Part shown: positions 12,789 to 64,000 of the stretch, piece after piece
Numbering within the stretch: position 1 is the stretch's first letter
How the letters are laid out: each line of letters begins with the position of its first letter
Source of the DNA: Clostridiaceae bacterium
GTDB taxonomy: Bacteria > Bacillota > Clostridia > Saccharofermentanales > DTU023
Length of the DNA stretch: 64,000 nt
Assembly: GCA_012838795.1 (NCBI GenBank)
Contig: DUOO01000056.1
Coordinates: 84,119-148,118, forward strand
Direction: 5' to 3'
The notes under the pieces: generated by a model
The model's input: the letters and a program-made list of their open reading frames with translations, nothing else
The model's database searches: none
What the model was told of the DNA's origin: nothing
Translations under genes and position numbers: made by a program

Positions 12789-12846
12789 TTGTTCATTCGT
12801 GAAATAATTAGAGGTTGTCTCAGAATTCTGAGCTGTGAAAGTTTTA

Positions 12847-13299
12847 CTCCCGGGCGTTAAAGTGTCAAAATTGACGGCTCTGCAAATCTCGGTTTGCGGG
12901 TAATCCCCACAGCCGTAATTTTTGACAGATCCGGCCTTCTCCCGAACGTTAAAGTGTCAAAATTGACGGCTCTGCAAATCTCGGATTGTCGTGAACCCCC
13001 ACAGCCGTAAATTTTGGCACCTCCGGCCTTCTCCCGAACGTTAAAGTGTCAAAATTGATGGCTCTGCAAATCTCGGTTTGCGGGCAACCCCCACAGTCGT
13101 AATTTTTGACAGATCCGGCCTTCTCCCGGGCGTTAAAGTGTCAAAATTGACGGCTCTGCAAATTCCGGATTGCGGGTAATCCCCACAGCCGTAATTTTTG
13201 ACAGATCCGGCCTTCTCCCGAACGTTAAAGTGTCAAAATTGACGGCTCTGCAAATCTCGGTTTGCGGGCAACCCCCACAGTCGCAATTTTTGACAGATC
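12847..13299 (+). repeat. Tandem array of 4.9 copies of a 92-bp structured unit
   Basis: Unit starts at 12847, 12939, 13031, 13123 and 13215. Units are near-identical, each with 20-nt inverted arms and an inner hairpin. Confidence 0.95.
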
Positions 13300-13404
13300 T
13301 GATGTGGATTTTCTTTACACCGCAGCGAAAAGAGAGCAGTTTTCTTGACCGGGAAAATCCTTTGAGATAGCTCTAATTAATAAGCTAATACATTTTGCTA
13401 TGCT

Positions 13405-15300
13405 TCAATTAATTCCATCTAAAATACCAGCAGCCCAATCAACTCCATAATCATAGATAGTCACTTTTCGCGGGCAACCGGATTCATCCCAACCCATCAT
13501 TTCATAATACAATTCGATGTTGGATTCAAATTGTTCCCGATCGAGTTTTTTGCCGGCTAAGGCTCCGGCATTGATTTCTTGTTCAAAGAATCTGTCGGGT
13601 AATTTATCATCTTCTTTGGAAAATCCCTCGCGGTAATTATAAAGGCGGAACAAATGATTCTTTAATTCACCAAGGCGCATAATTTCATATGAAGAAGTTT
13701 CAAATCCGGTAACTTGATGGAATAAATCCGCCATTTCTGCCAAACTATATACTCTGGTCGGAGCTGAAGCAAAAATACACATTCCGAGTGCATCAACTGC
13801 AGACCACAGATTATTCAGCACTTTATAATCATTAACCTTTTCCGGACCGGAATAATGCATTGGGATTCTTTCAAGAATTCCAAGTGTGCGGCTATAGTTC
13901 ATCGTATGCTCCCAGCCTACTTCGGTATCATAATCCCAATCGTGCTCACAAATATCGTAACGCGGACCGACGGCGGCAGTAGCATAACCTAAAGCCAAAT
14001 TTGTCTGCGAGCGACATTCTGTTGAAACAAGTTCATTGCCTTTTACCGTCATAGCATATTCCCGGGAATCATTTCCGATTATTTCGGCCGCCCGGGCTGC
14101 ACCCTCGGCTAAAATATCTCCAAGATCTTGTCGTTTTGCTATCATTTCAGTCAATTTTTCTATATCGACATCCGGACCGAAATTCAGATTGATTCCGCTC
14201 AACATTGATTCATCTAAGGCTTCGTTTTGTTTTGCTTCTTGAGCAAAAGAAATTGTGAAACCGAGTGAATTAGGGTCCATGCCATATTCGTTACATAAAA
14301 CATTGGCTTTAATTATTTTCGCTAAATCACTGTTGCCGATATTCGGACCCAAAGATCCCAGAGCCTCCTGATGCAGACCGCCCATGAATTCATTATCCGA
14401 AGCAGTTGCATAACGTTTAATACAATTATTAGGACAGTAAGGACATGGGGATTCCCCTTTATAAAATTCCGCAAATTTTTCCGGAGTGTATTGATCTGTA
14501 TAATCACATTCATTGGTCTGATAATTATTGACACAAAGGGCTGCATCAATACCATGTGTATGGATCCAGGCACCAAAACCGGGACGATCATATTGCCACA
14601 TCGAAAGTACATTTTCTTGCATCTTTTTTGTAAAGTTTCTCGAGATTTCTTCTAACTGATTCGGAGCATAAACCTCTGGAACATGTCCACCCGTAATGAC
14701 AACAGCTTTTAGGTTTTTTGATCCCATAACCGCGCCCATTCCTGCTCTGGAAGCTTGATGGTTTTGATCGCAAATTATATTCGCAAATCGTACTTTATTC
14801 TCACCGGCAGGTCCGATTGTTGCAATTGATGAATCGGGATAATCCGCTTTAATTTTTTCCACTGTATCACTGACTTTTTGTCCCCAAAGTTCTTCTGCCG
14901 ATATTAATTGCGGAATTTGATTTTCAATTAATAACATCACAGGTTGTTCGGATTTGCCACGAAAAATTATACCGTCATAACCTGATCTTTTTAATGCCAT
15001 GGCAAACGGACCTTCACATCTTGCCTCACCGATACCGCCTGTTGCAGGCGATTTTCCGGTGATCGTAAATCTTGCTAAGCCGGGAGCTTGATGACCGCCT
15101 AAAATACCGTTGAAAAACATCAAATATGCTTCCGGATCAAAAGCATCAATATCTGCCGGAGTTTCTTGAAGCAATTTTGTTACAGCCATTACAGATCCCG
15201 ATCCATATCGACGATATTCAATTTCAGTAGGTTTTTGCTCACTAAACTTCTTGTGCGTTAAATCCACATATAGTATTTTCCCATGGTATCCAAAGTTCAT
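13405..15300 (-). CDS. Aldehyde:ferredoxin oxidoreductase (tungstopterin AOR family)
   Basis: 631 aa. AOR N-terminal domain (GKILYVDLT...). CxxCxxxC cluster motif CPYCPNNC. SD AAGGAG. Confidence 0.9.
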   Translation of the reverse strand: MNFGYHGKILYVDLTHKKFSEQKPTEIEYRRYGSGSVMAVTKLLQETPADIDAFDPEAYLMFFNGILGGHQAPGLARFTITGKSPATGGIGEARCEGPFAMALKRSGYDGIIFRGKSEQPVMLLIENQIPQLISAEELWGQKVSDTVEKIKADYPDSSIATIGPAGENKVRFANIICDQNHQASRAGMGAVMGSKNLKAVVITGGHVPEVYAPNQLEEISRNFTKKMQENVLSMWQYDRPGFGAWIHTHGIDAALCVNNYQTNECDYTDQYTPEKFAEFYKGESPCPYCPNNCIKRYATASDNEFMGGLHQEALGSLGPNIGNSDLAKIIKANVLCNEYGMDPNSLGFTISFAQEAKQNEALDESMLSGINLNFGPDVDIEKLTEMIAKRQDLGDILAEGAARAAEIIGNDSREYAMTVKGNELVSTECRSQTNLALGYATAAVGPRYDICEHDWDYDTEVGWEHTMNYSRTLGILERIPMHYSGPEKVNDYKVLNNLWSAVDALGMCIFASAPTRVYSLAEMADLFHQVTGFETSSYEIMRLGELKNHLFRLYNYREGFSKEDDKLPDRFFEQEINAGALAGKKLDREQFESNIELYYEMMGWDESGCPRKVTIYDYGVDWAAGILDGIN

Positions 15301-21863: not shown

Positions 21864-23999
<2,136 letters not shown>

Positions 24000-24112
24000 T
24001 TATTAAACCTTTCGGTCCTTTCTTTATTCTATGTTTTTTTTATTAATTTCATGTATAAAAATATATTTAACTAATTATCTGCAAAAGTAATACTATTATA
24101 TATAAAAAGAAC

Positions 24113-24361
24113 TTATGTTTGTTTTTGTATTGAGCGTGAAACTATGGTTTTTGCAGAAACAGGTGAGAGATATACTCTATCAAGAGTCACTACAAACGAT
24201 CTTGGTAAATCCGGTGATACAATATCTAATTTGCCAAGTTCCTCTTGTTTTCTCAAAAATTTATTAGTATCCGTCCCGTAAGTCGTAGTTTGATCTATAT
24301 CAAAAATTCCCACAATCCATTTATCGGAAAGAGTATATTCGCCTCCTATATGAATGTACAA
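24113..24361 (-). CDS. remB: DUF370 protein (RemB/YaaB-like), in the conserved slot between recF and gyrB
   Basis: 82 aa. TTG start 5 nt after GGAGG. ...SFVVTLDRVYLSPVSAKTI resembles DUF370. Synteny matches B. subtilis yaaB. Confidence 0.65.
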   Translation of the reverse strand: MYIHIGGEYTLSDKWIVGIFDIDQTTTYGTDTNKFLRKQEELGKLDIVSPDLPRSFVVTLDRVYLSPVSAKTIVSRSIQKQT

Positions 24362-24460
24362 TTCAACCTCCGCTCAATAATTATGAAATTATACAATAAG
24401 ATAATTATTAAATATATTTCGTATCATTATTTAATTTTTATACGATGTTTTACCGGTATA

Positions 24461-25765
24461 TTATAGCAAATATTGACGTTTAACGGTACCTTCACGGACC
24501 TTGAAAAAGTTGATATATGAGCGGTTTAAGTTGCTTTCGAGATTATGTTCGTTTTCTTTTTCAATATTTTCCATATCGGATGAATTTTGTTTATCTGACA
24601 ATTTCTTTTTATATTCCGGATAAATTTGTCCCAAGTCGGTACAAGTAATAAAAACTTGATTGTCTTCAAATGCAGAAAGCAAATGAGTTCTTCTTTTAGC
24701 ATCTAATTCAGACATAACATCATCTAAAAGAAGAACCGGTTTTTGATTAGTTTCCTTTTCAATAATTTGTAATTCAGCTAATTTTAAAGCCAAGACAGCT
24801 GACCTTTGTTGCCCTTGTGAACCACGTTCTTTGAGCAAATTATCATCAACAATTAATTCAAGATCGTCTCGATGTGAGCCGCTTCCTGTACTTCCTCGTT
24901 CGATATCATCGTCCAGTTGGCGTTCAAAACGTTGCATTAAACTATCATAAATCTGATTTGAATCAAGTTTCGGGTCTATTCCGGAAACTGTTTTATAATT
25001 AATTTTAAATTTTTCTTTTCCGTCAGAAATTTTCTCTAAAGCTTCAATTGCATATTTCTCTATTTCTAAAATATATTTATATCTTGTACTGATAATCTGT
25101 GCTGATATTTTGGCTAAATGTTCAGTCCAAATTGTCAATTGTAATAAATTAAATTTATAGATTTCAGAATCATAAACATCACTATTCTTTTTTTTATCAA
25201 ATTTCATATTTCTCAGTGTTTTTAATAAGTTATTTCTTTGTTTGAGATATTGTTGATAAAGCTGCAAATTTCTAAAATATAACGGTTTAATTTGCGAGAT
25301 TAAAAGATCCAGAAAACGTCTTCTCCCTGCAGGACCTTCCTTAATTAACATTACGTCTTCCGGAGCAAAAATAACTGCATGAAAAAGACCGATCAGATCA
25401 CTAATTCTTTCCTGCTTGAAACCGCAATAATAAATATTTCTTTCAATCATCGGAAATTTTTTGTATTCAATTTTAATTTCTTCAATAAACGGCTTACTCT
25501 CATGAAATGATTGTTTAATGTTTTGTTCTGCATTATCCGACTCAAATTGGATTTCAACCTGATAATAATCAGCACCGTCTTTTATTAAATCATTATCTTT
25601 TCCGGTACGATGAGAACGGGCACAAGTACACAAATAAATTGCCTCAAGTATATTTGTCTTACCTTGGGCATTTTCTCCGACAAATACGTTTGTTCCTGAA
25701 GCAATTTCAATAGTTTGTTCCGTATAGTTACGAAAGTTTTTCAATTTTATTTGTTTAACTTTCAT
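24461..25765 (-). CDS. recF: DNA replication and repair protein RecF
   Basis: 434 aa. LKNFRNY and Walker A GENAQGKTN, signature region SQGQQRS, LLLDDVMSELD. Confidence 0.9.
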   Translation of the reverse strand: MKVKQIKLKNFRNYTEQTIEIASGTNVFVGENAQGKTNILEAIYLCTCARSHRTGKDNDLIKDGADYYQVEIQFESDNAEQNIKQSFHESKPFIEEIKIEYKKFPMIERNIYYCGFKQERISDLIGLFHAVIFAPEDVMLIKEGPAGRRRFLDLLISQIKPLYFRNLQLYQQYLKQRNNLLKTLRNMKFDKKKNSDVYDSEIYKFNLLQLTIWTEHLAKISAQIISTRYKYILEIEKYAIEALEKISDGKEKFKINYKTVSGIDPKLDSNQIYDSLMQRFERQLDDDIERGSTGSGSHRDDLELIVDDNLLKERGSQGQQRSAVLALKLAELQIIEKETNQKPVLLLDDVMSELDAKRRTHLLSAFEDNQVFITCTDLGQIYPEYKKKLSDKQNSSDMENIEKENEHNLESNLNRSYINFFKVREGTVKRQYLL

Positions 25766-25834
25766 CTATTATAGAAATATCTATTTTCTCAACTTAATAT
25801 AATAATATGAACGCAATTCAAAAATATAAATTTA

Positions 25835-26938
25835 TTACCTGCGTAAGGGGAGTACCAGATATAAGAATTGTTCTCCTTCCACAGGTTTAATTAAACAAGG
25901 CCCGAATGTCCCGGAAAATTCAAGGTATATATTCTCTACCGGAATATTACGCAAAGCATCCAAAAAATATTTTGGGTTATAGTCCGCATCTATATTTTCA
26001 CCCTCTAAATCGATTGAAATTTCTTCGTGTACCTCTCCTAAATCGGTTTGAGATGAAATTACCAGTGTTTCTTTATCCGTATTTTCCACAGTTACCGGGA
26101 ATCGTCTTTGTTCAACATTTATAACTAATGATGCTCGATCAATTGCATTTAACATGTCTTTTGTTCTTAATTTAATTTGACTCATCACTTCATTCGGAAC
26201 AACTTTATTATAGTCCATATATTCGCCTTGTAACAATCTGGAAACAAGTTTTACTGAACCTGTGTCAAACAATATGTGATTATGTGAAGGATATATTTTA
26301 ACCGGATTATCAGTCGGATCTAAAATTCCCGATACTTCTTGCATTGCTTTTGCCGGCACGATAAAAGACATGGCGGGTAATTCTTCTCTAAATTCTTCAC
26401 GCCTTATAGCTAAACGAAAACCGTCTATGGCAATTAATTCAAGCCTGTTATTATCAGCAACAACTTTAATTCCATTTAGAATAGGTCTGTTTTCATCTGA
26501 ACTGGCTGCAAAAATTGTTTGACCAATCATTTCTTTTAAGACTCTTTGAGAAACTTGCATTTTTTCAGCTTCTTCAACAATCGGAATTTTCGGATAATCA
26601 GTTGCTTCAATTCCTTTAATCTTAAATTGAGCTTTTCCACTGGTTATCTTAATTATATAATTCGTTTCTACTTCGATATTTACAATTTCTTCCGGCAATT
26701 TACGAACTATATCGCCGATCATTTTTGCGTTTAATACTACTTTTCCGGGAATTATTACATCTGTATCTATTTTACATTCAATTCCGGTTTCCAAATCATA
26801 TCCGGTAATCGTTAAAGTATCACTTTCTGCTTCGAATAACAAACCATCAAGAATAGACAAAGTAGAACGGGTAGCAATAGCCTTTTGCGCCATTGAAATT
26901 GCATCATTTAATAAATTTTTTGAGCAGATAAGTTTCAT
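25835..26938 (-). CDS. dnaN: DNA polymerase III beta sliding clamp
   Basis: 367 aa, typical DnaN sequence, position directly after dnaA. Confidence 0.95.
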   Translation of the reverse strand: MKLICSKNLLNDAISMAQKAIATRSTLSILDGLLFEAESDTLTITGYDLETGIECKIDTDVIIPGKVVLNAKMIGDIVRKLPEEIVNIEVETNYIIKITSGKAQFKIKGIEATDYPKIPIVEEAEKMQVSQRVLKEMIGQTIFAASSDENRPILNGIKVVADNNRLELIAIDGFRLAIRREEFREELPAMSFIVPAKAMQEVSGILDPTDNPVKIYPSHNHILFDTGSVKLVSRLLQGEYMDYNKVVPNEVMSQIKLRTKDMLNAIDRASLVINVEQRRFPVTVENTDKETLVISSQTDLGEVHEEISIDLEGENIDADYNPKYFLDALRNIPVENIYLEFSGTFGPCLIKPVEGEQFLYLVLPLRR

Positions 26939-27292
26939 ATACCTTCCTTTCTGATAAACTGTTTTTCAACAAGTTTAGTTATTGTTTAACAAAGTTGTTA
27001 ATGTTTATAAAATTTTCAAATTATAAATCGTAGTTTCTTTAATAAATAATATTATACTATTTACTTAATTAGTATTCATCCTCTTATTATATACTGTTGA
27101 TTATGTTAATAATCAACGATAAGCTCTGATATATAAAGCTATTTTGATGTAAAAAACTCTGTTAACAGTTTGCCTATAACTTTTTTGTTTTTAACATGAT
27201 TAACATTCAAATTTTTGTTAACAATTTAATGATGTTTTTTAACACCCGGTTTTTCACAATTGATAATAATTTTGTGAATTTAAAAAATAAGA
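26939..27292. other. dnaA-dnaN intergenic region: predicted second half of a bipartite oriC
   Basis: 354-bp AT-rich spacer. TGTTAATAA 27104. TGTTAAC 27160 and 27216. TGTTAATGT 26996. TTTTTAACA 27188 and 27236. One TTWTNCACA-type box, TTTTTCACA, at 27250-27258. Confidence 0.6.
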
Positions 27293-28639
27293 TTAAATAG
27301 GAGAAAGACGTAAATTAATCTCTTTAATTGAATTTTCCAATTCTGTATTATTATCTAATTCTTCTTTTACACGATCGCAAGCATGCATAACAGTAGCATG
27401 ATTTTTGTTACCGAAATCAATACCGATATCTTTGTATGTCATATTAAGTAAACTACGACAAAGATACATGGAAATTTGACGTGGTTGAACAATATCCTGA
27501 CTGCGTTTTTTGGATTTTAAATCATCCACGGTTACATTAAAATAATTGGCAGTTACATTCATAATTAATTCAGAACTTAAACTTTTAACCGAACGAGGAT
27601 CAATCTGATCTTTTAAGGCATTTCTGGTAGAAGCGAGATTGATACCGCCGCCGAGCATCGAATAAGCATAAATTGTTTTGAAAGCACCTTCAAGTTCACG
27701 AATATTGGAAGAAATGTGAGATGCAATGTAATCAAATACCTCATCCGGCCAATCAACATGATGTGCCTGAGCCAATTGAAGTAAAATAGCAATTCTCGTT
27801 TCATAATCAGGAGGATTGATATCAATTGTAATGCCACTGGAAAAACGGGTTTTCAATCTTTCTTCAAGAGTAATTAAAGATTGTGGCGGTTTATCACAAG
27901 TCATTACAATATTTTTTCCGGCTTCATATAAAGCATTAAATGTATGGAAAAATTCCTCTTGCATTCTTTCTTTATTTTCTAAAAATTGAACATCATCAAT
28001 CAGCAATAAATCCGTCATTCGATATTTATTGCGAAATGGTTCGAATTCTTTTAGCCGAATAGCCTCAATAAATTCATTAATAAAATTTTCGGAATTAACA
28101 TAAATTACATTCTTATCGGGAAAAACATCTTGGACATGGTTTCCGATTGCATGCATTAAATGAGTTTTGCCTAGACCTGAACCGCCGTAAAGGAATAAGG
28201 GATTATAGTTATTACTGTTTTGTAAAGACGCAACCGCAACACAAGCAGCATGAGCAAAGCGATTTCCTGAACCAACAACAAACGAATCAAATGTATAAGC
28301 AGGATTTAATACATCATTTGAAATATAAGATGCCTCTTCATCCTCTTTAGTTAAAATGTTTTGTTTAAGATTATTTAAATTATCTTTAGCATTAATTTCA
28401 ACTTTTACATCAAAAGTTTTTTGTGTAGCAAGTTTCAGAGCGGTACGAATCATCTCTTTGTATTGAACTACAAAATCGCGTGATATTTCATTCGGTACAG
28501 ACAAAACAAAAGTATCATCATTATATAGCATGGGAGTGATCGGTTTTAACCAAGTTGTATATGTGAGAGTAGGAACTTCTTTTTCCAGATAATCTTGACA
28601 TACATTTTGCCAAATAATATGAGCACTTTGTTCTTGCAT
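27293..28639 (-). CDS. dnaA: Chromosomal replication initiator DnaA
   Basis: 448 aa. AAA+ Walker A GGSGLGKTH, domain IV present. SD GAGGGGGG. Confidence 0.97.
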   Translation of the reverse strand: MQEQSAHIIWQNVCQDYLEKEVPTLTYTTWLKPITPMLYNDDTFVLSVPNEISRDFVVQYKEMIRTALKLATQKTFDVKVEINAKDNLNNLKQNILTKEDEEASYISNDVLNPAYTFDSFVVGSGNRFAHAACVAVASLQNSNNYNPLFLYGGSGLGKTHLMHAIGNHVQDVFPDKNVIYVNSENFINEFIEAIRLKEFEPFRNKYRMTDLLLIDDVQFLENKERMQEEFFHTFNALYEAGKNIVMTCDKPPQSLITLEERLKTRFSSGITIDINPPDYETRIAILLQLAQAHHVDWPDEVFDYIASHISSNIRELEGAFKTIYAYSMLGGGINLASTRNALKDQIDPRSVKSLSSELIMNVTANYFNVTVDDLKSKKRSQDIVQPRQISMYLCRSLLNMTYKDIGIDFGNKNHATVMHACDRVKEELDNNTELENSIKEINLRLSPI

Positions 28640-28957
28640 ATATCCCCCCTCTTTTCTTAATTGTTAAACTATACTAACAGAAAAAAACTGTAGGTAAAAG
28701 TTGTAATAATACAGAAGAAATGCAATAAATATCATTTTTTTCAACAATATGGATTATATAATCAAATGTTAATAGTGTTAATAACTTGGATAATAATTGA
28801 ATAATTCAAGTAAAAATCATGCGATAAATGTTAATAAGTATATGAAATAATGTTAATAACTTTATGAATATTATAAATATAGTTTTTTTTAATATTATAT
28901 AATTATTTTATAAATAAATTTCAATAGCAAATAGTCTATGTTAACGAGTTGAGTTTT
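28640..28957. other. dnaA-upstream region: predicted oriC box cluster plus an AT-rich candidate unwinding element
   Basis: Same-orientation 9-mers: TGTTAAACT 28662, TGTTAATAG 28767, TGTTAATAA 28776, 28829 and 28851, TGTTAACGA 28939. An almost pure A/T stretch lies at about 28861-28935. Confidence 0.65.
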
Positions 28958-29620
28958 TCATCCTTTTTCATGTTTTAATTTTGCCAAAATGTAGTTGAAT
29001 TTTTCGATCTTATTTCTAAATAATTTCAAATCAAAATTTGTTTCAACATCTTTTAATAAATTCTCAGCCTGGTCAATTTCTTTTTGTAATAAATCTTTTT
29101 GTTCCGAGGTAAGAGTATTATAATCAGTTAAATGTTTAATCAGAGCATTGATTCGTTTTCTCAGATTAATGACATGAGAAATCACTATTCTGTCTTGAAA
29201 AAGTTCGTGAATGAGTTCATTAAAAGTAAAATTATAATTATTTTCGGTAGCAACTGCTTTTAAAGGAAATCTCGGAAAATTTTCATCTCGAATATGTTCT
29301 AAGAGATGTTCGACTTGATTTCGTGAAAACCCGGAAAAAAACAAAAGATTTTCTGATTTTTGATTTTCACTGCGAGAAGTTTTTTGAAGAGGAATTAAAT
29401 TTTGATTATTACTTTTCTCTAAACGCTCTGTTACTTGAGAAATTCTTAATGAAAAATCACCACTTTTGATCAGATAAAAAGGGATTTCTTGAAGGTTTAA
29501 AAAACTTAAAAAACGATCTCTTTTATCTGAATCTGTTATTTCTTCTTCGGAAAAATAAACTATCAGTCCAAAAGGTGTTTTGAAAATAGGTTTGTCTGTC
29601 TTAACTTCTTGATCTGCCAA
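28958..29620 (-). CDS. DUF3783-like domain protein with a coiled-coil C-terminal half
   Basis: 220 aa. TTG start 9 nt after GGAAGGAG. LLFFSGFSRNQVEHLLEHIRDENFPRFPLKAVATENNYNFTFNELIHEL resembles DUF3783 (from memory). Confidence 0.5.
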   Translation of the reverse strand: MADQEVKTDKPIFKTPFGLIVYFSEEEITDSDKRDRFLSFLNLQEIPFYLIKSGDFSLRISQVTERLEKSNNQNLIPLQKTSRSENQKSENLLFFSGFSRNQVEHLLEHIRDENFPRFPLKAVATENNYNFTFNELIHELFQDRIVISHVINLRKRINALIKHLTDYNTLTSEQKDLLQKEIDQAENLLKDVETNFDLKLFRNKIEKFNYILAKLKHEKG

Positions 29621-35567: not shown

Positions 35568-36125
35568 ATGAAAGAATTACCGAAATATTATACGATTGAT
35601 ATCCATGGGCTGAAAAGACAATTAAATATAGTAAAAGTCTCAGATGATTTGGCGATCGCTGCGCTAATTATTCTGGGAGATGTTGAAGCTGTAAGCCATT
35701 GCGCAAAATTGTTAGCCGAACGCATTCCGGAAGTAGACATTTTAATCACTGCGGAAGCCAAAGGAATACCGCTAGTTCATGAGCTGTCACGTATTTTAGA
35801 CATACCTCGTTATGTCGTTGCCCGCAAAAGCAAAAAAACATATATGGAAGATCCGTTATCGGTTGATGTTGAGTCGATAACTACAATAGGACACCAAAAA
35901 CTATATTTGCCGCGTGAAGATCTGTATTTAATTCAAGGCAAGAGAGTCGGCATTGTTGATGACGTAATTTCTACCGGTGAATCTCTTAAATCGCTCGAGG
36001 AATTGATTGAACAGGCAGGCGGCAATGTCGCAGTGAAAGCCTCAATTCTAGCCGAGGGTGATGCAATCGGCCGTACCGACATCATTTATCTCCAGGAATT
36101 ACCGTTGTTCCCGATTGAAAAATAG
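35568..36125 (+). CDS. Phosphoribosyltransferase-family protein (adenine/purine PRT-like)
   Basis: 185 aa. PRPP-binding motif VGIVDDVISTGESL. Confidence 0.7.
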   Translation: MKELPKYYTIDIHGLKRQLNIVKVSDDLAIAALIILGDVEAVSHCAKLLAERIPEVDILITAEAKGIPLVHELSRILDIPRYVVARKSKKTYMEDPLSVDVESITTIGHQKLYLPREDLYLIQGKRVGIVDDVISTGESLKSLEELIEQAGGNVAVKASILAEGDAIGRTDIIYLQELPLFPIEK

Positions 36126-36159
36126 TTGAATTGCCCTTTAACGTACGTTATAATGTACG
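36126..36159 (+). promoter_or_regulatory. yefM-yoeB promoter (TTGAAT-17-TATAAT) with two GTAC-core operator repeats
   Basis: TTGAAT 36126-36131 and TATAAT 36149-36154. CGTACG is centred at 36144/45 and TGTACG at 36156/57, giving 12 bp centre to centre. Confidence 0.6.
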
Positions 36160-36203
36160 CAAAGGATTTTTATTTTTAACCCTGCTATGGAGGAGGGATT
36201 ATT

Positions 36204-36452
36204 ATGCAATATTCAAATATTACTAATTTTCGCAAAAATATTTATAAGCTTCTGGAAGAAACACTTAAATATAATGAACCTCTTCAAATCAGTACGAAAG
36301 ACGGCAATGCGATTGTTTTGAGCGAAGATGATTATAACGGTCTGATAGAAACACTATATTTAACATCTGTACCCGGAATGAAAGAAATCATAAAAGACGG
36401 TCTGACGACCTCCATTTCAGATTGTGTATCGGAAGACGAGGTCGAGTGGTAG
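36204..36452 (+). CDS. yefM: Type II antitoxin, Phd/YefM family
   Basis: 82 aa. FRKNIYKLLEET...ISTKDGNAIVLSEDDYNGLIETLYL. SD GGAGGAGGG. Confidence 0.88.
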   Translation: MQYSNITNFRKNIYKLLEETLKYNEPLQISTKDGNAIVLSEDDYNGLIETLYLTSVPGMKEIIKDGLTTSISDCVSEDEVEW

Positions 36453-36716
36453 ATGTATAAGATAATCTATACCAAAAGATCGATCAAAGATATTCCTAAA
36501 TTAAAGAGAGCAAAACTTGATACAAAAGCAAAAAATCTAATTTCTATTATTAAAAACAATCCTTATCAAAAACCTCCGTCGTATGAAAAATTAAAAGGTG
36601 ACTTACAAGGAGCTTATTCAAGACGAACCAACCACCAACATAGGCTTGTATATCAAATTTTGGAAGAAGAAAAAATCATAAAAATAATTAGCTTATGGAC
36701 TCATTATGAAATTTGA
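36453..36716 (+). CDS. yoeB: Type II toxin, Txe/YoeB family mRNA interferase
   Basis: 87 aa. The ATG abuts the yefM stop. ...LKGDLQGAYSRRTNHQHRLVYQI...ISLWTHYE. Confidence 0.88.
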   Translation: MYKIIYTKRSIKDIPKLKRAKLDTKAKNLISIIKNNPYQKPPSYEKLKGDLQGAYSRRTNHQHRLVYQILEEEKIIKIISLWTHYEI

Positions 36717-36914
36717 TGTATAGAAATCCATCTTCATGTATGAAAACTCAAAAAATTTTGGGATGAAAGACAAAAATCCTTCTGAATAAAACTTGAAAAT
36801 CTTTCTGAATGACGCTATTAAGATGCTAGTATTTAAGAGACGATCTCTTATTGATAATATCAATTAAAGAGCAGATATATACAGACACCGGTATTCTGAT
36901 ATTGTGGAGATAAT

Positions 36915-37511
36915 ATGATAAAAAACATAATTTTTGACATGGGAAATGTGCTGATTTTATTCAGACCGGAAATATTTATAAACAGACTTAACGTCAGTCA
37001 ACAAGATGCAAAACTGTTAAATGATATTATTTTTGATTCGCAAGAATGGGCAAGTCTTGATAACGGAAGTGCAAATGAAGATGAAGTAATTGAAATTTTG
37101 AAAAAGAAACTTCCAAGAAGACTGCATGATGAAATGATTGCTCTGGTTACCGAATGGGATATTCCTCTGATAGAAATAGAAGGTATGAGCCAATTAATCA
37201 AAGAATTAAAAGCGGAAGGCTATAAAATATATTTACTTTCCAATGCAAGCACACGTCAACACGAATATTGGCCTAGGATTTCCGCATCTCAATATTTTGA
37301 CGGGACAGTGATTTCGGCTGATGTCAAAATGGTAAAGCCGAATCCTGAAATTTTTGAACATCTATGCGCAAAATTCTCATTGCTACCTGCTGAATGTTTT
37401 TTTATTGACGATCTTGAACAACACATAATTGCAGCAGAAAGTATCGGCATGCAAGGATATCAGTTTACCGGGAATGTTTATGATTTAAGAAAAGTAATTG
37501 ACAGATTATAG
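36915..37511 (+). CDS. HAD-superfamily hydrolase (subfamily IA)
   Basis: 198 aa. Motif I IIFDMGNVLI, motif IV FFIDD. Confidence 0.8.
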   Translation: MIKNIIFDMGNVLILFRPEIFINRLNVSQQDAKLLNDIIFDSQEWASLDNGSANEDEVIEILKKKLPRRLHDEMIALVTEWDIPLIEIEGMSQLIKELKAEGYKIYLLSNASTRQHEYWPRISASQYFDGTVISADVKMVKPNPEIFEHLCAKFSLLPAECFFIDDLEQHIIAAESIGMQGYQFTGNVYDLRKVIDRL

Positions 37512-37554
37512 ATTAACAGTTGTTTTTTCAGTGATCTTAAAATAGAATTCCATT

Positions 37555-37587
37555 AAAAAACCAACCCTCAGCAGAGGGTCGGTTTTC
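37555..37587. terminator. Bidirectional terminator shared by the HAD gene and eno
   Basis: AAAAAA-CCAACCCTC-agca-GAGGGTCGG-TTTT (8 of 9 positions pair). Confidence 0.7.
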
Positions 37588-37622
37588 GATAATAAAGGAT
37601 CTTTTTATGGTTTCTTTTTCAA

Positions 37623-38957
<1,335 letters not shown>

Positions 38958-39203
38958 TTAATACTTATATATAATGAATACAGTTTAATCTGCATGTACA
39001 TATATTATTGATTATACATGAATGGGTACAATAATATAAGTCTTCGCAATATTTATGTTTATGTGAAAAAAATATTGACTAAATTATGTTTCAAAGATTA
39101 GACTAATATGCATAATAAAAACGTATGAGTGTTATGGATCGGATTATTATTTGTAATGATCCGTCACATATTTTTATCATTAAATATTTATATGGGGGTT
39201 AGT

Positions 39204-40463
39204 ATGAGCGAAACAAAATTATCTCAATATCAGGAAACATTACAATCCATAAAAGAGATTGCTGAAGAGTTAGGTTATGAAGAAGCCGACTATATAACAT
39301 TATTAAGTCCGGAAAGAGAAGTTACCGTATCTTTACCGGTGACTATGGATGATGGTAAGGTTCGCGTTTTTCAAGGCTATAGGATTCAAGATAATAGTGC
39401 ACGCGGACCATATAAAGGCGGTATACGCTATCATCCGGAAGTTAAAATTGAAGAAGTTCGTGATTTAGCTTTGTTAATGAGCTTGAAATGTTCTGTTGCC
39501 GACATTCCTTATGGCGGAGCCAAAGGCGGTATCACGGTAGATCCGCGTGAGTTATCCGAAACGGAATTAGAGCGTTTGACTCGAAAATATGCAGAAAAAA
39601 TTTATCCGGTCATCGGAGCAGAAATTGATATACCTGCTCCTGACGTGAATACCAATGCTAAAATCATGGGCTGGTTCAGAGATGAATATAGTAAAATAGC
39701 CGGAGTTCAAGTTCCGGGAATCGTTACCGGGAAGCCGATTGAAGTAGGCGGATCATTGGGCAGAAATGAAGCAACGGGTCTTGGTGTTTCTACAATAACT
39801 CATGTTTTTGCTCAAAATCAAAAATTTGTACCCGAAGAGACAAGGGTTGTTGTTCAGGGTACAGGCAATGTGGGCTTGATCACTGCTCAATTCCTGGCAA
39901 AAGAAGGATATAAAATTGTTGCTTTGTCCAATGTGGCGGGTGCTGTCTACAATGCAAACGGTTTTGATGTTTCAGTTCTCAATTTAACGAATGGCGATCA
40001 AAAAAATTATGACTTATTAACAGCACAAGAAGGCTCGGAAGAAATTCCGATGAATGAATTTTTATCAGTGGAATGTGATATTTTGATTCCTGCTGCCATG
40101 CAAAATCAAATCCGTGCCGATAATGCAGATCAAATAAAAGCTAAAATTGTGATTGAAGCCGCCAATGCTCCTGTTTCAGCTGAAGGAGAGGTTATACTGA
40201 TCAAAAGAGACATTAAAGTTCTGCCCGATATTCTATGTAATGCGGGCGGTGTTATTTGCTCATATTTTGAATGGGTACAAAATATGCAACATTTCAGCTG
40301 GACCCTTGAAGAAGTCAATACAAGATTGATTGCAAAAATGAAATCGGCTTTTGACGCGGTACTTGCAATGCAAGCTGAGAAAAACTGCACTTATCGTCAA
40401 GCAGCAATGTTGATTGCAGTTGACCGGATTATCAAAGCAACCAAGTCAAAAGGCAAGTATTAA
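39204..40463 (+). CDS. gdh: Glutamate dehydrogenase (Glu/Leu/Phe/Val dehydrogenase family)
   Basis: GGAKGG catalytic-Lys motif (PYGGAKGGI), Rossmann GTGNVG. I place the start at ATG 39204 (MSETKL...) after GGGGGT. The track's 25 extra residues look spurious. Confidence 0.9.
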   Translation: MSETKLSQYQETLQSIKEIAEELGYEEADYITLLSPEREVTVSLPVTMDDGKVRVFQGYRIQDNSARGPYKGGIRYHPEVKIEEVRDLALLMSLKCSVADIPYGGAKGGITVDPRELSETELERLTRKYAEKIYPVIGAEIDIPAPDVNTNAKIMGWFRDEYSKIAGVQVPGIVTGKPIEVGGSLGRNEATGLGVSTITHVFAQNQKFVPEETRVVVQGTGNVGLITAQFLAKEGYKIVALSNVAGAVYNANGFDVSVLNLTNGDQKNYDLLTAQEGSEEIPMNEFLSVECDILIPAAMQNQIRADNADQIKAKIVIEAANAPVSAEGEVILIKRDIKVLPDILCNAGGVICSYFEWVQNMQHFSWTLEEVNTRLIAKMKSAFDAVLAMQAEKNCTYRQAAMLIAVDRIIKATKSKGKY

Positions 40464-40464
40464 G

Positions 40465-40701
40465 CCTGTTTCTGCTCAGAATTCGACGCTGTGCAAATTT
40501 TCGTTTGCAGGCCTCCGAATTTTGAGCAATTTTCATATTATTACGCCCGTTTTTGCTCAGAATTCAACGCTGAGCGAATTTATTTCTGCATGTCTCCGAA
40601 AAGTGAGCAGTTTTCATGGCAGGAATCCCTGTTTCTGCTCAGAATTTTGAGCTGTGTAGATTTTTGCTTGCACAGCGATGAAAAGTGAGCAGTTTTCATG
40701 G
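40465..40701 (+). repeat. Tandem array of 3 copies of a ~82-bp structured unit, related to the 92-bp family
   Basis: The TGCTCAG anchor occurs at 40473, 40554 and 40636. Shared tail CCGAWWWWGTGAGCAGTTTTCAT. Inner hairpin TGCAAA...TTTGCA. Confidence 0.9.
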
Positions 40702-41001
40702 TTGTGGTATCGGTTCTTGCACTAACCCATTTTTTAAGATTTCAAAAAAGCAAGATGAGAACATTTAAAAAGAAGAGCAAAAAAGAAGAACAAAAAAGAA
40801 AGCAATAAGACAGAACAATATGGAAGAACAACAAGGACGAGCAATAAGGAAAAGCAATACGGGAATCTAAAAATGTAATATAAGATACCAAATAATTATT
40901 GAATACGCTCAGATGCTGAATATGATATTAAATATGCAATAATGTGTAAGAGAGCTTATGAGAATAATGAATTTTAAAATATATAAAACGGGAGGTACAC
41001 C

Positions 41002-42576
41002 ATGAAAAAATATGATTATCTGGTAATAGGTACAGGGGCAGCAAATATTACTACTGATGCGGCAATTGATGCAGGAAAAACAGTAGCTGTCATTGAAAAA
41101 GGCAAGTTCGGCGGAACTTGTTTGAATCGTGGTTGCATTCCGACCAAAACATTGGTCAATCCTGTAGATTATAAAATGGATTTTGCCAGACTCAAGAGCA
41201 AGGGTTTGATTGAAGGTGAATTCAAGCTTAATTGGACCGCAATGGGCGCGAGAATGTGGAATCATTTGAATCATCAGAGTTCGCAAGTTCTTGAAGCATA
41301 TTCTGTTGAAGAAAATGTGGATGTTTACCAAGGAACGGGATTTTTCACGGGGGAAAAAGTCGTCCGGGTTAAATTTAATGACGGAACACTTTCGGAAGAA
41401 TTGACAGCAGATACGATTTTAATTGCCAGCGGTGCCCGTACCAGAATTCCCGATAATATCAAAGGATTGGAAAAAATTGATTATATAACTTCGGAAACTT
41501 TTTTTGGAGACAAATTTCCGAAACAACCATATAGAAGTCTGGTGATTTTAGGTGGCGGCCCGATTGCAGCAGAATTTGCCCATATCTTTGCAAACATGGG
41601 GACACAGGTTACAATCGTTCAGCATAATCCGCGTTTGTTGCCGGTTTTTGATCCTGACATTACAGAAACAGTGTTGAAGGAATACGAAAAGTCAGGTATT
41701 GAAGTCTATCTCAATTCTGAGATGATCCAAGTTGAGGAAAACGACGGAGTCAAGAAATTTACGATCGAACATCGTGCAACCGGAGAAACAAAAATTATCG
41801 AAGCAGAAGATTTATTACTTGCTACGGGATTAACCGGCAACAGCGATATTTTAAAACTTGAAAATACCGGTGTTGAATTGGATAGTCGCGGCTGGATTAA
41901 GACTAATGAATTTCTGGAAACTTCAGTTGAAGGAGTTTATGCAATCGGTGATGCGAATGGCAAATTTCAATTACGTCATGTAGCAAATTATGAAGCGGAA
42001 ATATTGGCTTTTAACTTGTTCGAAAGAGAGCGAAATGATGCAGGTTTAGCTGTTACACCAAGAAGAAGAGCACGTTATGACGTCGTTCCGTCTGCGGTTT
42101 ATACTCATCCGCAAGTAGCCTCAGTCGGTTTGAATACAAAAATGGCAGAAGACCAAGGTTTTCAGATAACAACGGGTAAATTTGCATACGGATATACGAT
42201 TAAACCGTTTGCCATGGGTTACGATTTCGGAAAACCGGAAAATTTTGTTAAAATTATTGCAGATCAAAAGACCAGACGAATTTTAGGAGTTCAAATTGTC
42301 GGACCGGAAGCAGCGATTTTAGTTCAACCTTATGTAAACCTGATCAACACCGGAGAGCATAAATTCAAAATTCTCGAGCCGGAAATCGGTTCTGCTGAAA
42401 CTGAAAGAGAACGCAAAGAATTTACTGCAAGATATCTTGATCCGAGAACTCCCGATGCCGTCAACTATACAATGACGATCCATCCGGCTTTAAGCGAAGT
42501 ATCAACTTGGGCATCAAGTGCAGTTGAATTCGACGGACCGATCCTCAATGCCGAACAACCGATAGATTTGGAATAG
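41002..42576 (+). CDS. Class I FAD-dependent pyridine nucleotide-disulfide oxidoreductase (dihydrolipoamide/mycothione-reductase-like)
   Basis: 524 aa. GTGAAN FAD motif, redox-active GGTCLNRGCIPTK, second Rossmann GGGPIAAE. SD GGGAGG. Confidence 0.8.
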   Translation: MKKYDYLVIGTGAANITTDAAIDAGKTVAVIEKGKFGGTCLNRGCIPTKTLVNPVDYKMDFARLKSKGLIEGEFKLNWTAMGARMWNHLNHQSSQVLEAYSVEENVDVYQGTGFFTGEKVVRVKFNDGTLSEELTADTILIASGARTRIPDNIKGLEKIDYITSETFFGDKFPKQPYRSLVILGGGPIAAEFAHIFANMGTQVTIVQHNPRLLPVFDPDITETVLKEYEKSGIEVYLNSEMIQVEENDGVKKFTIEHRATGETKIIEAEDLLLATGLTGNSDILKLENTGVELDSRGWIKTNEFLETSVEGVYAIGDANGKFQLRHVANYEAEILAFNLFERERNDAGLAVTPRRRARYDVVPSAVYTHPQVASVGLNTKMAEDQGFQITTGKFAYGYTIKPFAMGYDFGKPENFVKIIADQKTRRILGVQIVGPEAAILVQPYVNLINTGEHKFKILEPEIGSAETERERKEFTARYLDPRTPDAVNYTMTIHPALSEVSTWASSAVEFDGPILNAEQPIDLE

Positions 42577-55031: not shown

Positions 55032-55122
55032 GGAGGGATGGTCGAGCTGGCTGAAGGCACCGGTCTTGAAAACCGGCAAGGGCGTGAGTCCTTCGTGGGT
55101 TCAAATCCCACTCCCTCCGCCA
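55032..55122 (+). tRNA. tRNA-Ser (anticodon TGA), long variable arm, encoded CCA
   Basis: GGAGGGA acceptor pairs with TCCCTCC. Anticodon loop CTTGAAA. T-arm GGGTTCAAATCCC. Ends GCCA. Confidence 0.92.
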
Positions 55123-55214: not shown

Positions 55215-55304
55215 GGAGAAATACCCAAGTGGTGAAGGGGACGGTTTGCTAAACCGTTAGCAGGGGCGACTCTGGCGTGGGTTCAAATCCCACTTTCTCC
55301 GCCA
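55215..55304 (+). tRNA. tRNA-Ser (anticodon GCT), long variable arm, encoded CCA
   Basis: GGAGAAA acceptor pairs with TTTCTCC. Anticodon loop TTGCTAA between ACGGT and ACCGT. T-arm GGGTTCAAATCCC. Confidence 0.92.
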
Positions 55305-56951: not shown

Positions 56952-57539
56952 TTAGCTGTTTTTGTTTTGTACTGCACCGATAATGTAGAGAATCGGGATT
57001 ACCAATCCTAACAATAAAGAAAGAACCGGGAAAGGATATCCGCCGACCGCTGTCAAGATTGAGCTGAGCACGCTGATTGCTGCGACTGCTATACCCCAAA
57101 TGAGCAGCTTACCGGCTTTAGCTTTATTGTTATTATGTTTTATTCCGGAAATTCCGGCAATCAATTGGACGATTGAGCCGACACCGCTGAGAGCAAAGGC
57201 AGCATATAATACTCCTGTAGAAATGCCCAAATAACTGGCACCAAAGCTAAAATACGGATTAGATGCAAGAGCGGCGATACCGGTAATACCGATGATTGTA
57301 GCTATAATTCCGATAGCGGCACCAATGATCATTAAGATACCGACTACTTTGAGCATAGTAGCACCTTTCAGCTTAGGAGCTTGTTGATATTGTTGTTGGT
57401 ATTGCGGCTGATACTGCTGCTGATATTGTTGCTGTTGCGGTTGATATTGTTGCTGTTGCGGTTGATATTGTTGTTGTTGCGGTTGATACTGCTGTTGTTG
57501 ATATTGTTGTTGTGGATTGTAATTATTATTTTGATCCAT
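56952..57539 (-). CDS. Membrane protein with a Q/Y-rich heptad-repeat N-terminus and about 4 TM helices
   Basis: 195 aa. SD GGAGGT. The N-terminal 55 aa are almost only Q, Y and P. No family recognised. Confidence 0.6.
   Translation of the reverse strand: MDQNNNYNPQQQYQQQQYQPQQQQYQPQQQQYQPQQQQYQQQYQPQYQQQYQQAPKLKGATMLKVVGILMIIGAAIGIIATIIGITGIAALASNPYFSFGASYLGISTGVLYAAFALSGVGSIVQLIAGISGIKHNNNKAKAGKLLIWGIAVAAISVLSSILTAVGGYPFPVLSLLLGLVIPILYIIGAVQNKNS
57398..57510 (-). repeat. About 4-5 tandem 21-bp repeats encoding QQQQYQP heptads
   Basis: GTTGATATTGTTGCTGTTGCG units occur at 57440 and 57461, with diverged flanking copies. Confidence 0.85.
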
Positions 57540-63357: not shown

Positions 63358-64000
63358 ATGAGTATTAAAAAAATGATCGCTCTTTTACTGGTCATAGTCA
63401 TGACTTTTGCTTTGGCAGCTTGCGGCTCCAAAGATAAAGAGTCTGATGACGAAAAAGCTGATGACGTAAAGACTGATGACGTGAAGTCTGATGACGAAAA
63501 GGCTGATGACAAAAAGGCTGATGAAGAGCCCGCAGATGAAGAACCTGCAGATGAAGAGCCTGCAGATGAAACGCCCGATGAGGTTAAGAAGACCATCTAT
63601 GTTCTGGCTCCTAACCCTGACCACGGCTGGACCGGTGCTATCGGTGTTTTTGCTGAGGCTAAAGTTGACGAGTTGAACAACGAAGGAAAGTATGATGTTC
63701 GCTTCCAGACTTTTGCTTCTGCTGATGACCAAATTAAGCAGATAGAAGACATTATCGCCAACGATCCCGGTGACGGTTCCATCGGCGTTGCAATGTTGCC
63801 TGCCAGTCCCGACGTTGAGAATGCCATCCAGCAACTGGCTGATGCAAACATCCCATACACCGCAGCTGACCGTATCATTCCATCCGTTGCCGATACTGCT
63901 GTTTCCAACATCAAGTATGATAACGTTGAAATCGGTGCTGCCGCTGCTTCCTACCTGGTTGCTAACGGCATGGTTGAAGGTGACAAGGTTGTCTGTATCG
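63358..64000 (+). CDS. Sugar ABC substrate-binding lipoprotein with an acidic linker (partial, continues past the window)
   Basis: Absent from the ORF track because it runs off the edge. SD AGGAGG then MSIKKMIALLLVIVMTFALAACGSKDKESDDEKADD...EEPADEEPADEEPADETPDEVKKTIYVLAPNPDHGW... Confidence 0.85.
   Translation, partial: MSIKKMIALLLVIVMTFALAACGSKDKESDDEKADDVKTDDVKSDDEKADDKKADEEPADEEPADEEPADETPDEVKKTIYVLAPNPDHGWTGAIGVFAEAKVDELNNEGKYDVRFQTFASADDQIKQIEDIIANDPGDGSIGVAMLPASPDVENAIQQLADANIPYTAADRIIPSVADTAVSNIKYDNVEIGAAAASYLVANGMVEGDKVVCI

Follow-up and report, generated by a model that had tools for sequence, protein, structure and literature searches.

In the 64,000-nucleotide window analysed here (Clostridiaceae bacterium, assembly GCA_012838795.1, contig DUOO01000056.1, positions 84,119 to 148,118 of the forward strand), three head-to-tail hairpin units of 81-82 bp occupy 40465-40708 of the plus strand, the first of them beginning 2 nt past the TAA stop codon (40461-40463) of gdh. 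The 81-82-bp family is named F1, and F1 to F4 together with the variant F2' denote related or analogous hairpin-repeat families. F1 is probably a family of dispersing, tandemly amplifying intergenic hairpin repeats that are selfish or neutral, similar to the repetitive extragenic palindromic (REP), bacterial interspersed mosaic element (BIME), and BOX repeats, with any effect in the 3' untranslated region (3'-UTR) of a neighbouring gene being incidental. The sequence family is undescribed, while its kind, the small interspersed palindromic repeats, is well known. F1 copies have dispersed to non-orthologous sites, arrays have expanded and contracted in situ, and nesting occurs.

Each F1 unit consists of an imperfect hairpin of about 60 nt and a linker of about 22 nt, 81-82 bp in total. 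In the gdh array, CTCAGAATT occurs at 40475, 40556, and 40638 and TGCTCAG at 40473, 40554, and 40636, giving periods of 81 and 82, while GAGCARTTTTC recurs at 40524, 40605, and 40687. The anchors, the periods, and the start just after the gdh stop had been given in an earlier model-made note on this DNA (the original prediction), and were reproduced. Tandem Repeats Finder (TRF) called the array at 40458-40646 with a period of 81, 76% matches, and a score of 215, and all three units were retrieved by nhmmer as well as by cmsearch. Unit A (40465-40545; cmsearch 83.9 bits) is a long hairpin whose left half resembles the 92-bp family F2 and whose right arm is "palindromised", with GAATTTTGAGCA in place of the canonical GAAAAGTGAGCA. 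Unit B (40546-40626; nhmmer 72.6 bits) is a degenerate sister of A. Unit C (40627-40708; cmsearch 91.1 bits) is of the canonical type that is common to other species, with GCTCAGAATTTTGAGC, the inner hairpin, and GAAAAGTGAGCAGTTTTCATGG, and is most similar to the units of a related locus, L044. A terminal partial unit (…TCGGTTCTTG; 40709-40719, plus strand), read from the sequence, repeats the motif GGTTTYTG, which precedes every F1 unit and also closes the arrays or single copies at L044, L074, and L009. The same three units, identical in sequence, were present in two independent ENA assemblies (L001 and L002), so the array is not an assembly artefact. The gene upstream, gdh (39204-40463, plus strand), was identified by its open reading frame (ORF) and translation as a Glu/Leu/Phe/Val dehydrogenase gene ending in TAA; its exact 419-aa product occurred on two ENA contigs and carries the Pfam domains ELFV_dehydrog_N and ELFV_dehydrog.

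An exact 20-base pattern searched over 185,579 species, with one genome each, yielded 53 stretches, approximately the chance estimate, with the exception of four stretches from two metagenome-assembled genomes (MAGs). These true F1 stretches came from MAG AS23ysBPME_19 (L009, L020, and L044) and MAG AS21ysBPME_111 (L012), referred to below as AS23 and AS21, and a scan of JGI metagenomes added only contig L074, which represents the same locus as L044. All samples with F1 relatives were biogas or anaerobic-digester metagenomes, and the MAGs of this narrow clade of uncultured Clostridia are labelled "Clostridiaceae bacterium" or "Saccharofermentanales bacterium" at NCBI; the names of proteins encoded on related contigs likewise point to the order Saccharofermentanales. 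True members share a left box, GCTCAGAATT, and a right box, TGAGCAGTTTTC, with exactly 40 nt in between, and an 82-bp period where they are tandem. The exact pattern counted four F1 units in the AS23 representative genome and one in AS21, and both counts are lower bounds because the pattern misses diverged copies. Viral contigs, plasmids, and phages gave no F1 match. At the gathering threshold, Rfam returned only two tRNAs in the window and nothing repeat-related at six related loci (a TPP riboswitch was found elsewhere), and at E <= 10 the best matches within 40300-41000 were miRNA models of 12-19 bits, far below threshold. A match to a known family, which the original prediction had named as evidence against itself, thus appeared in none of the Rfam, phage, plasmid, or viral-contig searches, and a literature search on the MAG accessions found no paper.

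Signs of mobility come from orthologous sites. The spacer that separates gdh from the lpd-like gene measures 539 bp in this genome, where the three F1 units are accompanied by a degenerate F3-like remnant and by an A-rich tract of 13-bp period. The spacer of a relative with 90% identity (L079) measures 313 bp, and two intact units of the unrelated family F3 fill exactly the post-gdh site, while that of a relative with 81% identity (L080-L089) measures 158 bp and has no array. In the three-way spacer alignment, about 135 bp next to the lpd-like gene (promoter-proximal) are conserved in all three species. The putative F3 remnant (CTTGCACTAACCCATTTTTTAAG…AAAAAAGCAAG; 40716-40754, plus strand), recognised in this alignment by partial similarity, sits where the 90% relative has its two intact F3 units. 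The A-rich tract (about 6.8 copies of GAAGAGCAATAAG, 40767-40859) separates the F1 array from the conserved lpd promoter region and, since neither L079 nor L082 has it, is a lineage-specific expansion. After pckG, AS23 carries two to three F1 units, L102 combines a terminator with F3 units and a reversed F1-like unit, and three other species have a canonical terminator only.

Copy number changes within loci as well. At the pckG locus, two F1 units were found in L044 versus three in L074. Within the species of the window, the F2 array comprises 4.9 units (five nhmmer matches) in the window versus 6.9 units (seven matches) in L098, with flanks that are 99.6-100% identical, and three further contigs break inside the 92-bp array. 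The linker between units A and B (TATTACGCC) matches the gdh stop context before unit A (TATTAAGCC) in eight of nine positions in register, while only two to three positions match in the linker between B and C, and A and B are the best-scoring pair among the window units. As the A-B linker copies the gdh stop context, unit B represents an in-place duplication of a segment that starts in the last gdh codons.

At 12.8 kb of the window, the F2 array itself is part of a fourth F1 copy, named D. The left arm of this split copy (TGTCTCAGAATTCTGAGCTGTG…; 12815-12846) was aligned by MAFFT with units A-C and matches the F1 hidden Markov model (HMM) at 12-39 with nhmmer, and the right arm (…CACCGCAGCGAAAAGAGAGCAGTTTTC…CCTTTG; 13302-13364) was placed by alignment and by an nhmmer match to HMM 31-78 (E = 1.5e-4). 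Between them, 4.9 x 92 bp of F2 (12847-13301, by TRF and nhmmer) occupy the central loop, all on the plus strand. When the flanks of D are joined, MAFFT aligns them with units A-C over the full length with a sole large gap in the central loop, and the 92-bp array is therefore nested in F1. The composite is enclosed by the two halves of a locus-specific 9-nt inverted repeat, TAATTAGAG at 12805-12813 and CTCTAATTA at 13371-13379 (both listed on the plus strand), the longest perfect inverted repeat between its flanks. Orthologues of the DUF4432 gene upstream of it (71 and 59%) are followed by plain terminators and are too distant for an empty-site comparison. Sequence kinship between the families was also found in unit A, in which a 38-column local alignment pairs TCAGAATTCGAC-GCTGTGCAAATTTTCGTTTGCAGGC with TCAAAATT-GACGGCTCTGCAAATCTCGGTTTGCGGGC of the 92-bp unit (z = 8.1, 0 of 400 shuffles), while units B and C have no significant similarity to it. 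The kinship claimed in the original prediction for the gdh units accordingly holds for unit A, over a longer segment than it had described, and does not extend to B and C; the nesting of the 92-bp array in copy D and the growth of the gdh array by local duplication had been overlooked.

F1 copies lie near gene ends in either orientation. The gdh array (2 nt past the stop), copy D (27 nt past the stop of the DUF4432 gene), and the AS23 array of L044/L074 (a few nt past the pckG stop) are in the sense of the upstream gene, and the location of both window arrays 3' of a plus-strand gene agrees with what had been noted before. The element of L009 lies on the plus strand between two minus-strand genes (cobW-like and PEMT) and is antisense, as is that of L012, located 4 nt past the stop of a minus-strand FtsX gene. 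L102 has its reversed F1-like unit past pckG and the canonical terminator of that gene, and at L020 the element is on the minus strand between two plus-strand ORFs (probably antisense). The flanking genes were confirmed as real by Pfam. In a compilation over all families, every one of the 12 array loci follows at least one gene, and none is flanked by a divergent gene pair (P ~0.03 under our own rough expectation of 25%), showing a bias to gene 3' ends that follows no orientation rule. The absence of an orientation bias, which the original prediction had listed among the outcomes that would count against it, is thus a fact for orientation, given the antisense or reversed copies of L009, L012, and L102. 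Its other proposal, in which gene ends are the target of a mobile structured element, is supported by presence and absence and family swap at orthologous sites, by copy-number change, by nesting, and by the downstream position of all 12 loci. The mobile element is the better of its two readings, and its interpretation overall is partly supported.

Three of seven independent F1 loci are bracketed by perfect inverted repeats within 9 nt of the element ends, and the repeats differ by locus. They comprise the 9-nt pair of composite D (null P = 0.008), the 8-nt pair TAAAAGGG / CCCTTTTA at the pckG array of L044/L074 (null P = 0.03), and the 8-nt pair AAGAAGGG / CCCTTCTT at the L009 copy (null P = 0.03). 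The null was empirical and used two 40-nt windows at equal spacing in the same genomes; three or more of seven loci with an inverted repeat of at least 8 nt at p = 0.03 would be expected at ~1e-3. The bracket stems of L009 and L044 have a T-rich tail behind them when read in the direction of the upstream gene. The brackets at three loci and the position of F2 inside F1 together point to insertion into hairpin loops, and the pattern suggests that F1 inserted into the loops of older, terminator-like hairpins. Extended further, F1 and its sister families would form a new class of non-autonomous elements that home to single-stranded hairpin loops, with terminator loops and both the loops and the ends of their own relatives as targets, and with each copy recreating its target, a proposal that we regard as speculative and rather unlikely. 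Since a copy ends in the same GGTTTYTG that precedes it, each copy would recreate its own target; the motif could be such a target, but equally a product of duplication or simply where a partial unit begins. If loop homing were true, it would explain why the 81-82-bp units are arranged strictly head to tail, why nesting occurs, and why the sites behind gdh and pckG were colonised repeatedly and independently, and it would need a single-stranded DNA (HUH-type) or other enzyme as driver. To our knowledge, no RAYT-like mobilisation system has been established for these bacteria. A parent insertion sequence (IS) was sought, and the one IS3-family element compared (L088 2579-3783) has unrelated ends.

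The hairpin of F1 was confirmed by folding. As the original prediction had stated, the outer arms of unit A, TGCTCAGAATTCGA and CCGAATTTTGAGCA, pair around TGCAAA-TTTTCG-TTTGCA (minimum free energy -27.2 kcal/mol, z = -5.2, none of 200 shuffles as good); unit C also reaches -27.2 kcal/mol (z = -3.6), while unit B is degenerate as a hairpin (z = -1.1). The consensus hairpin is kept in 91.7% of cells, compared with 36-47% for slid partners. Covariation did not exceed shuffles, as the two pairs with double changes were equalled in 211 of 500, and folding energy showed no consistent strand preference, with the plus strand better in five of eight units and the minus strand in three. Arms differ between the families, with TGCTCAG… in F1, TGTCAAAA… in F2 and F2', and TGCACAC… in F3, and each is self-complementary; DNA palindromes or terminal inverted repeats would be expected to show this pattern of differing yet self-complementary arms just as well. 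With covariation at shuffle level, strand energies inconsistent, and an arm pattern that equally fits DNA palindromes, the hairpin potential of F1 is real and selection at the RNA level is unproven. A scan for terminators over 39000-42000 (G+C-rich stem, loop of 3-8 nt, at least five T in eight) found no site inside the array, because the tail GTTTTC that follows each hairpin has only four T. In all three species compared, the stretch from gdh to the lpd-like gene has no canonical terminator, so that the array may be part of an operon, as intercistronic REPs are. A K-turn reading of the internal loop of unit C was dropped, as it fits unit C only and the same positions are Watson-Crick paired in L012.

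These results bear on the view that F1 hairpins are selected cis-acting 3'-UTR structures, acting as tandem terminators, exonuclease blocks, or insulators for a highly expressed upstream gene (gdh, or pckG in the relative). Such a role would suit the sense orientation of both window loci and of the AS23 pckG locus, which start 2-27 nt past the stop codon, the GTTTTC after each hairpin on the plus strand only, the excess of G.U pairs over A.C mismatches on that strand, the lack of another terminator-like site between gdh and lpd, and the folding of units A and C far better than shuffles. However, L009, L012, L102, and probably L020 are antisense to adjacent genes, orthologous sites in relatives do without the element and have ordinary terminators, covariation is no better than shuffles, folding energy favours the minus strand in three of eight units, the four-T tail failed the terminator scan, and unit B is degenerate. 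Of the selected stabiliser, terminator, or insulator fold put forward in the original prediction, the conserved hairpin potential stood, while covariation, strand bias, terminator scan, and orientation failed it, so that it is weakly supported overall and we consider selected 3'-UTR structures unlikely, if worth keeping in mind. The same indifference to orientation, with equal folding on both strands, would fit a double-stranded DNA feature, and the F1 array might be a cluster of sites bound by a recombinase or by a host protein; binding of a nucleoid protein, gyrase, or IHF has been reported for BIMEs. The GCTCAGAATT and TGAGCAGTTTTC boxes that are conserved across species around a variable centre and the constant unit length of 81-82 bp are in line with binding sites, but no candidate protein is known and no genomic association with one is seen, presence and absence at orthologous sites speaks against an essential site, and degenerate copies are tolerated, which makes this explanation improbable. 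That each unit is a small RNA (sRNA) gene of a tandem cluster, or a transcribed product acting in trans, is very improbable. The stable hairpin followed by a short U run would agree with an sRNA, and tandem sRNA paralogues exist in other Firmicutes, for example LhrC in Listeria, yet an 82-bp unit is too short for a promoter plus an RNA, a promoter scan found no site inside 40465-40708, Rfam gave no match, and the linkers are poorly conserved.

Several observations weigh against F1 as a selfish or neutral dispersing repeat. Both F1 loci in this genome are co-oriented with the upstream gene, and plus-strand G.U pairs outnumber A.C mismatches in F1 (about 18 versus 4-5 cells); together, these two observations leave room for a strand-specific role of RNA or single-stranded DNA. 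Four of the seven F1 loci have no bracketing inverted repeat, and the bracket test was post hoc. No consistent target-site duplication was found: apart from the GGTTTYTG of the element, TG or CTG is all that the junctions at L044, L009, and D have in common. No transposase lies near any copy, and no Y1 transposase or RAYT (REP-associated tyrosine transposase; PF01797) occurred among the Pfam annotations of the related loci examined. The low copy number, for which the exact pattern gives four units in the representative genome of AS23, sets F1 apart from classic REP or BOX families, and with only about 10 distinct F1 units known, the statistics on position and orientation are thin.

A dispersing hairpin repeat nevertheless remains the probable explanation, and its mechanism can be sketched as follows. 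F1 copies have reached non-orthologous intergenic sites in different species and are missing where close relatives have the orthologous site. They land downstream of genes, and at three of the seven loci apparently in the loop of a pre-existing, locus-specific hairpin resembling an old terminator; in the nested case, the 92-bp family has been amplified inside the loop of an F1 copy. Within a locus, arrays lengthen or shorten through tandem duplication, slippage, or unequal recombination. For the host, sense transcription of the array would place a series of stable hairpins, each with UUUUC behind it, 3' of gdh in its mRNA. Like REP/BIME and BOX/SPRITE, these hairpins could delay 3'-5' decay or dampen some of the read-through into the lpd-like gene. 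This effect on the gdh mRNA would be a by-product and not what maintains F1.

Further hairpin families occur in the clade. An F2' array (L092 20255-20640) was found in the same genome about 8.5 kb past the right end of the window and upstream of ftsH, with four units of 81-82 bp (GTGTCAAAAATTCCGTTTCTGCGGATTGCGCCCCACACAGCCAGGTTTTTTGACACC…). It is related to the 92-bp family (z = 6.1) and is preceded by a palindrome resembling an F1 arm (CAGCTCCGAATTCCGAGCAG). L092 15000-15260, also in this genome, contains a canonical terminator and, behind it at 15090-15250, isolated remnants of F3 (CTGCACACTTTTTAAG) and F1 (TGTTGTCTCAAAATTCTTGA) arms that look like decayed elements. F3 (TGCACACTTTYTAAGGTT … AACCTTARAAAGTGTGCA) forms tandem units of about 75-100 bp at L079 11262-11435, L009 4893-5170 (three tandem units), and L102 12014-12263, with no significant sequence similarity to F1 or F2. 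F4, 81 bp x 5.2, lies downstream of enolase in the 81% relative (L082 6299-6719; FZPS01000155.1, GCA_900198705.1) and has an F1-like start, TTTCTGCTCCATTTCG…CGAAAAAACTTGGAG. ORFs of 145-195 aa were called over the F4 array without a Pfam match, and their lengths vary between strains; they look like spurious calls on a copy-number-variable array. Over all families, the ~84 kb examined in this genome contain about one hairpin-repeat locus per 20 kb, with F1 units at just two of these loci. From F2', F3, F4, and the remnants it follows that the clade carries a set of mosaic, tandemly amplifying hairpin repeats.

The two F1 loci of the window flank the replication origin region (21864-29620), which contains dnaA (27293-28639, minus strand), dnaN, recF, gyrB, parA, and parB, with a cumulative GC-skew minimum at ~28-30 kb beside dnaA-dnaN-recF-gyrB. 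An AT-rich stretch with many short repeats occurs at 28779-29240, and DnaA boxes of the E. coli type (TTATCCACA, at most one mismatch) form no cluster near dnaA or within this stretch. An orientation tied to replication, as expected of IS200/IS605-like elements that use single-stranded DNA, was not supported for F1, as the two loci are on opposite replichores and both on the plus strand (n = 2). Elsewhere in the window, Rfam identified a pair of plus-strand tRNA genes, both long at 87-88 nt, at 55032-55119 and 55215-55301. In-frame short tandem repeats occur at 57381-57517 (ORF 56952-57539, minus strand) and 63443-63571 (ORF 63385-63834, minus strand) with periods of 6/12/15/21 and 15/30/45, respectively, and CTT-rich repeats at 4839-4961 inside ORF 3913-5073 (minus strand); all three are probably low-complexity protein segments. 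In the 90% relative, a PhdYeFM/YoeB toxin-antitoxin pair lies between a phosphoribosyltransferase gene and enolase (L079 7059-7571), and its counterpart site in the window (~36125-37623) holds a different ORF of 198 aa (36915-37511). Strain-specific IS insertions of the 81% relative comprise the IS3-family element of L088, which lies inside a PMT glycosyltransferase gene, and a Transposase_mut domain fused to a Mur ligase call (L110 17664-19739).

For annotation, F1-type arrays should be marked as repeat elements and not as small ORFs, sRNAs, or riboswitches. They also break metagenome assemblies, as three contigs end inside the 92-bp array, and could serve as markers similar to variable-number tandem repeats (VNTRs) for typing strains of an abundant biogas-reactor lineage. 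The sites after gdh and pckG, colonised repeatedly and independently by unrelated hairpin families, and the apparent insertion into terminator loops provide a small, tractable case for the spread of non-coding palindromic repeats in Firmicutes, with the caveat that the general phenomenon is already well known.

Among known systems, the outer arms CTGCTCA…TGAGCAG give F1 the terminal inverted repeats of miniature inverted-repeat transposable elements, without a fixed-length target-site duplication. F1 units are homologous over their full length and abut with no unique spacers, unlike a CRISPR array, and have no GTTRRRY or RYYYAAC at their ends and no cassettes between them, unlike integron attC sites or CALIN clusters. 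Elements that home to hairpins include IS1397 and ISKpn1, which insert into REP loops, and class C group II introns, which insert after terminators. They share with F1 the insertion in or next to existing stem-loops, as the brackets suggest for three F1 loci and for F2 in F1, but they are autonomous and protein-coding, while F1 is 82 bp long and non-coding. The MIRU minisatellites (VNTRs) of mycobacteria, which Supply and co-workers are said to have described in 1997, are likewise intergenic tandem repeats of 40-100 bp with copy numbers that vary between strains; MIRUs, however, are not long hairpins, are oriented with the operon, and overlap small ORFs, whereas F1 is palindromic and also occurs as single dispersed copies. 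A known dispersed repeat resembling an oversized terminator has the long duplex, the U-rich tail after it, and the enrichment near the 3' ends of coding sequences in common with F1, which differs by a tail of only four U, by its occurrence in both orientations, and by its tandem arrays.

REP, BIME, and REPIN elements of Proteobacteria, with their RAYT transposases (PMC3116915, PMC3337134), are imperfect palindromes found extragenically downstream of genes, and all F1 copies are likewise intergenic. Both are mosaics of few motifs with tandem amplification, as in BIME-2, and with incidental stabiliser or attenuator effects at mRNA 3' ends; REPINs are also long hairpins with two conserved arms and a variable centre, and REPs are also insertion targets for other elements. 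In contrast, F1 has no GTAG/GTGG-type head, its arms are not inverted copies of one short palindrome, its units are direct and not alternating, its host is a Firmicute, and no RAYT was found among the Pfam annotations of related loci. Tens to hundreds of copies per genome are expected of REPs, while F1 has four in AS23 and one in AS21, as a lower bound.

The pneumococcal BOX element, boxA-(boxB)n-boxC (Martin et al. 1992; Croucher et al. 2011, PMC3049150), is a small non-coding intergenic repeat of a Firmicute without a transposase of its own, as is F1. Its terminal modules pair as a stem around a self-folding internal module in variable tandem number, which is the arrangement of F1-left, F2 x n, and F1-right at 12815-13364. 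A plain 82-bp F1 unit is comparable to an A1C1 BOX, and in both systems array length varies between strains and elements cluster and insert into each other. At gdh, however, the whole F1 unit with arms and linker is repeated head to tail and not as A-Bn-C, which BOX elements do not do; F1 copies per genome are apparently far fewer, the host clade is another, and the likeness noted here is one of architecture. F1 thus belongs to a well-known kind of repeat, alongside stem-loop families, BOX/SPRITE, and REP/BIME (PMC2267715, PMC3049150, PMC3116915).

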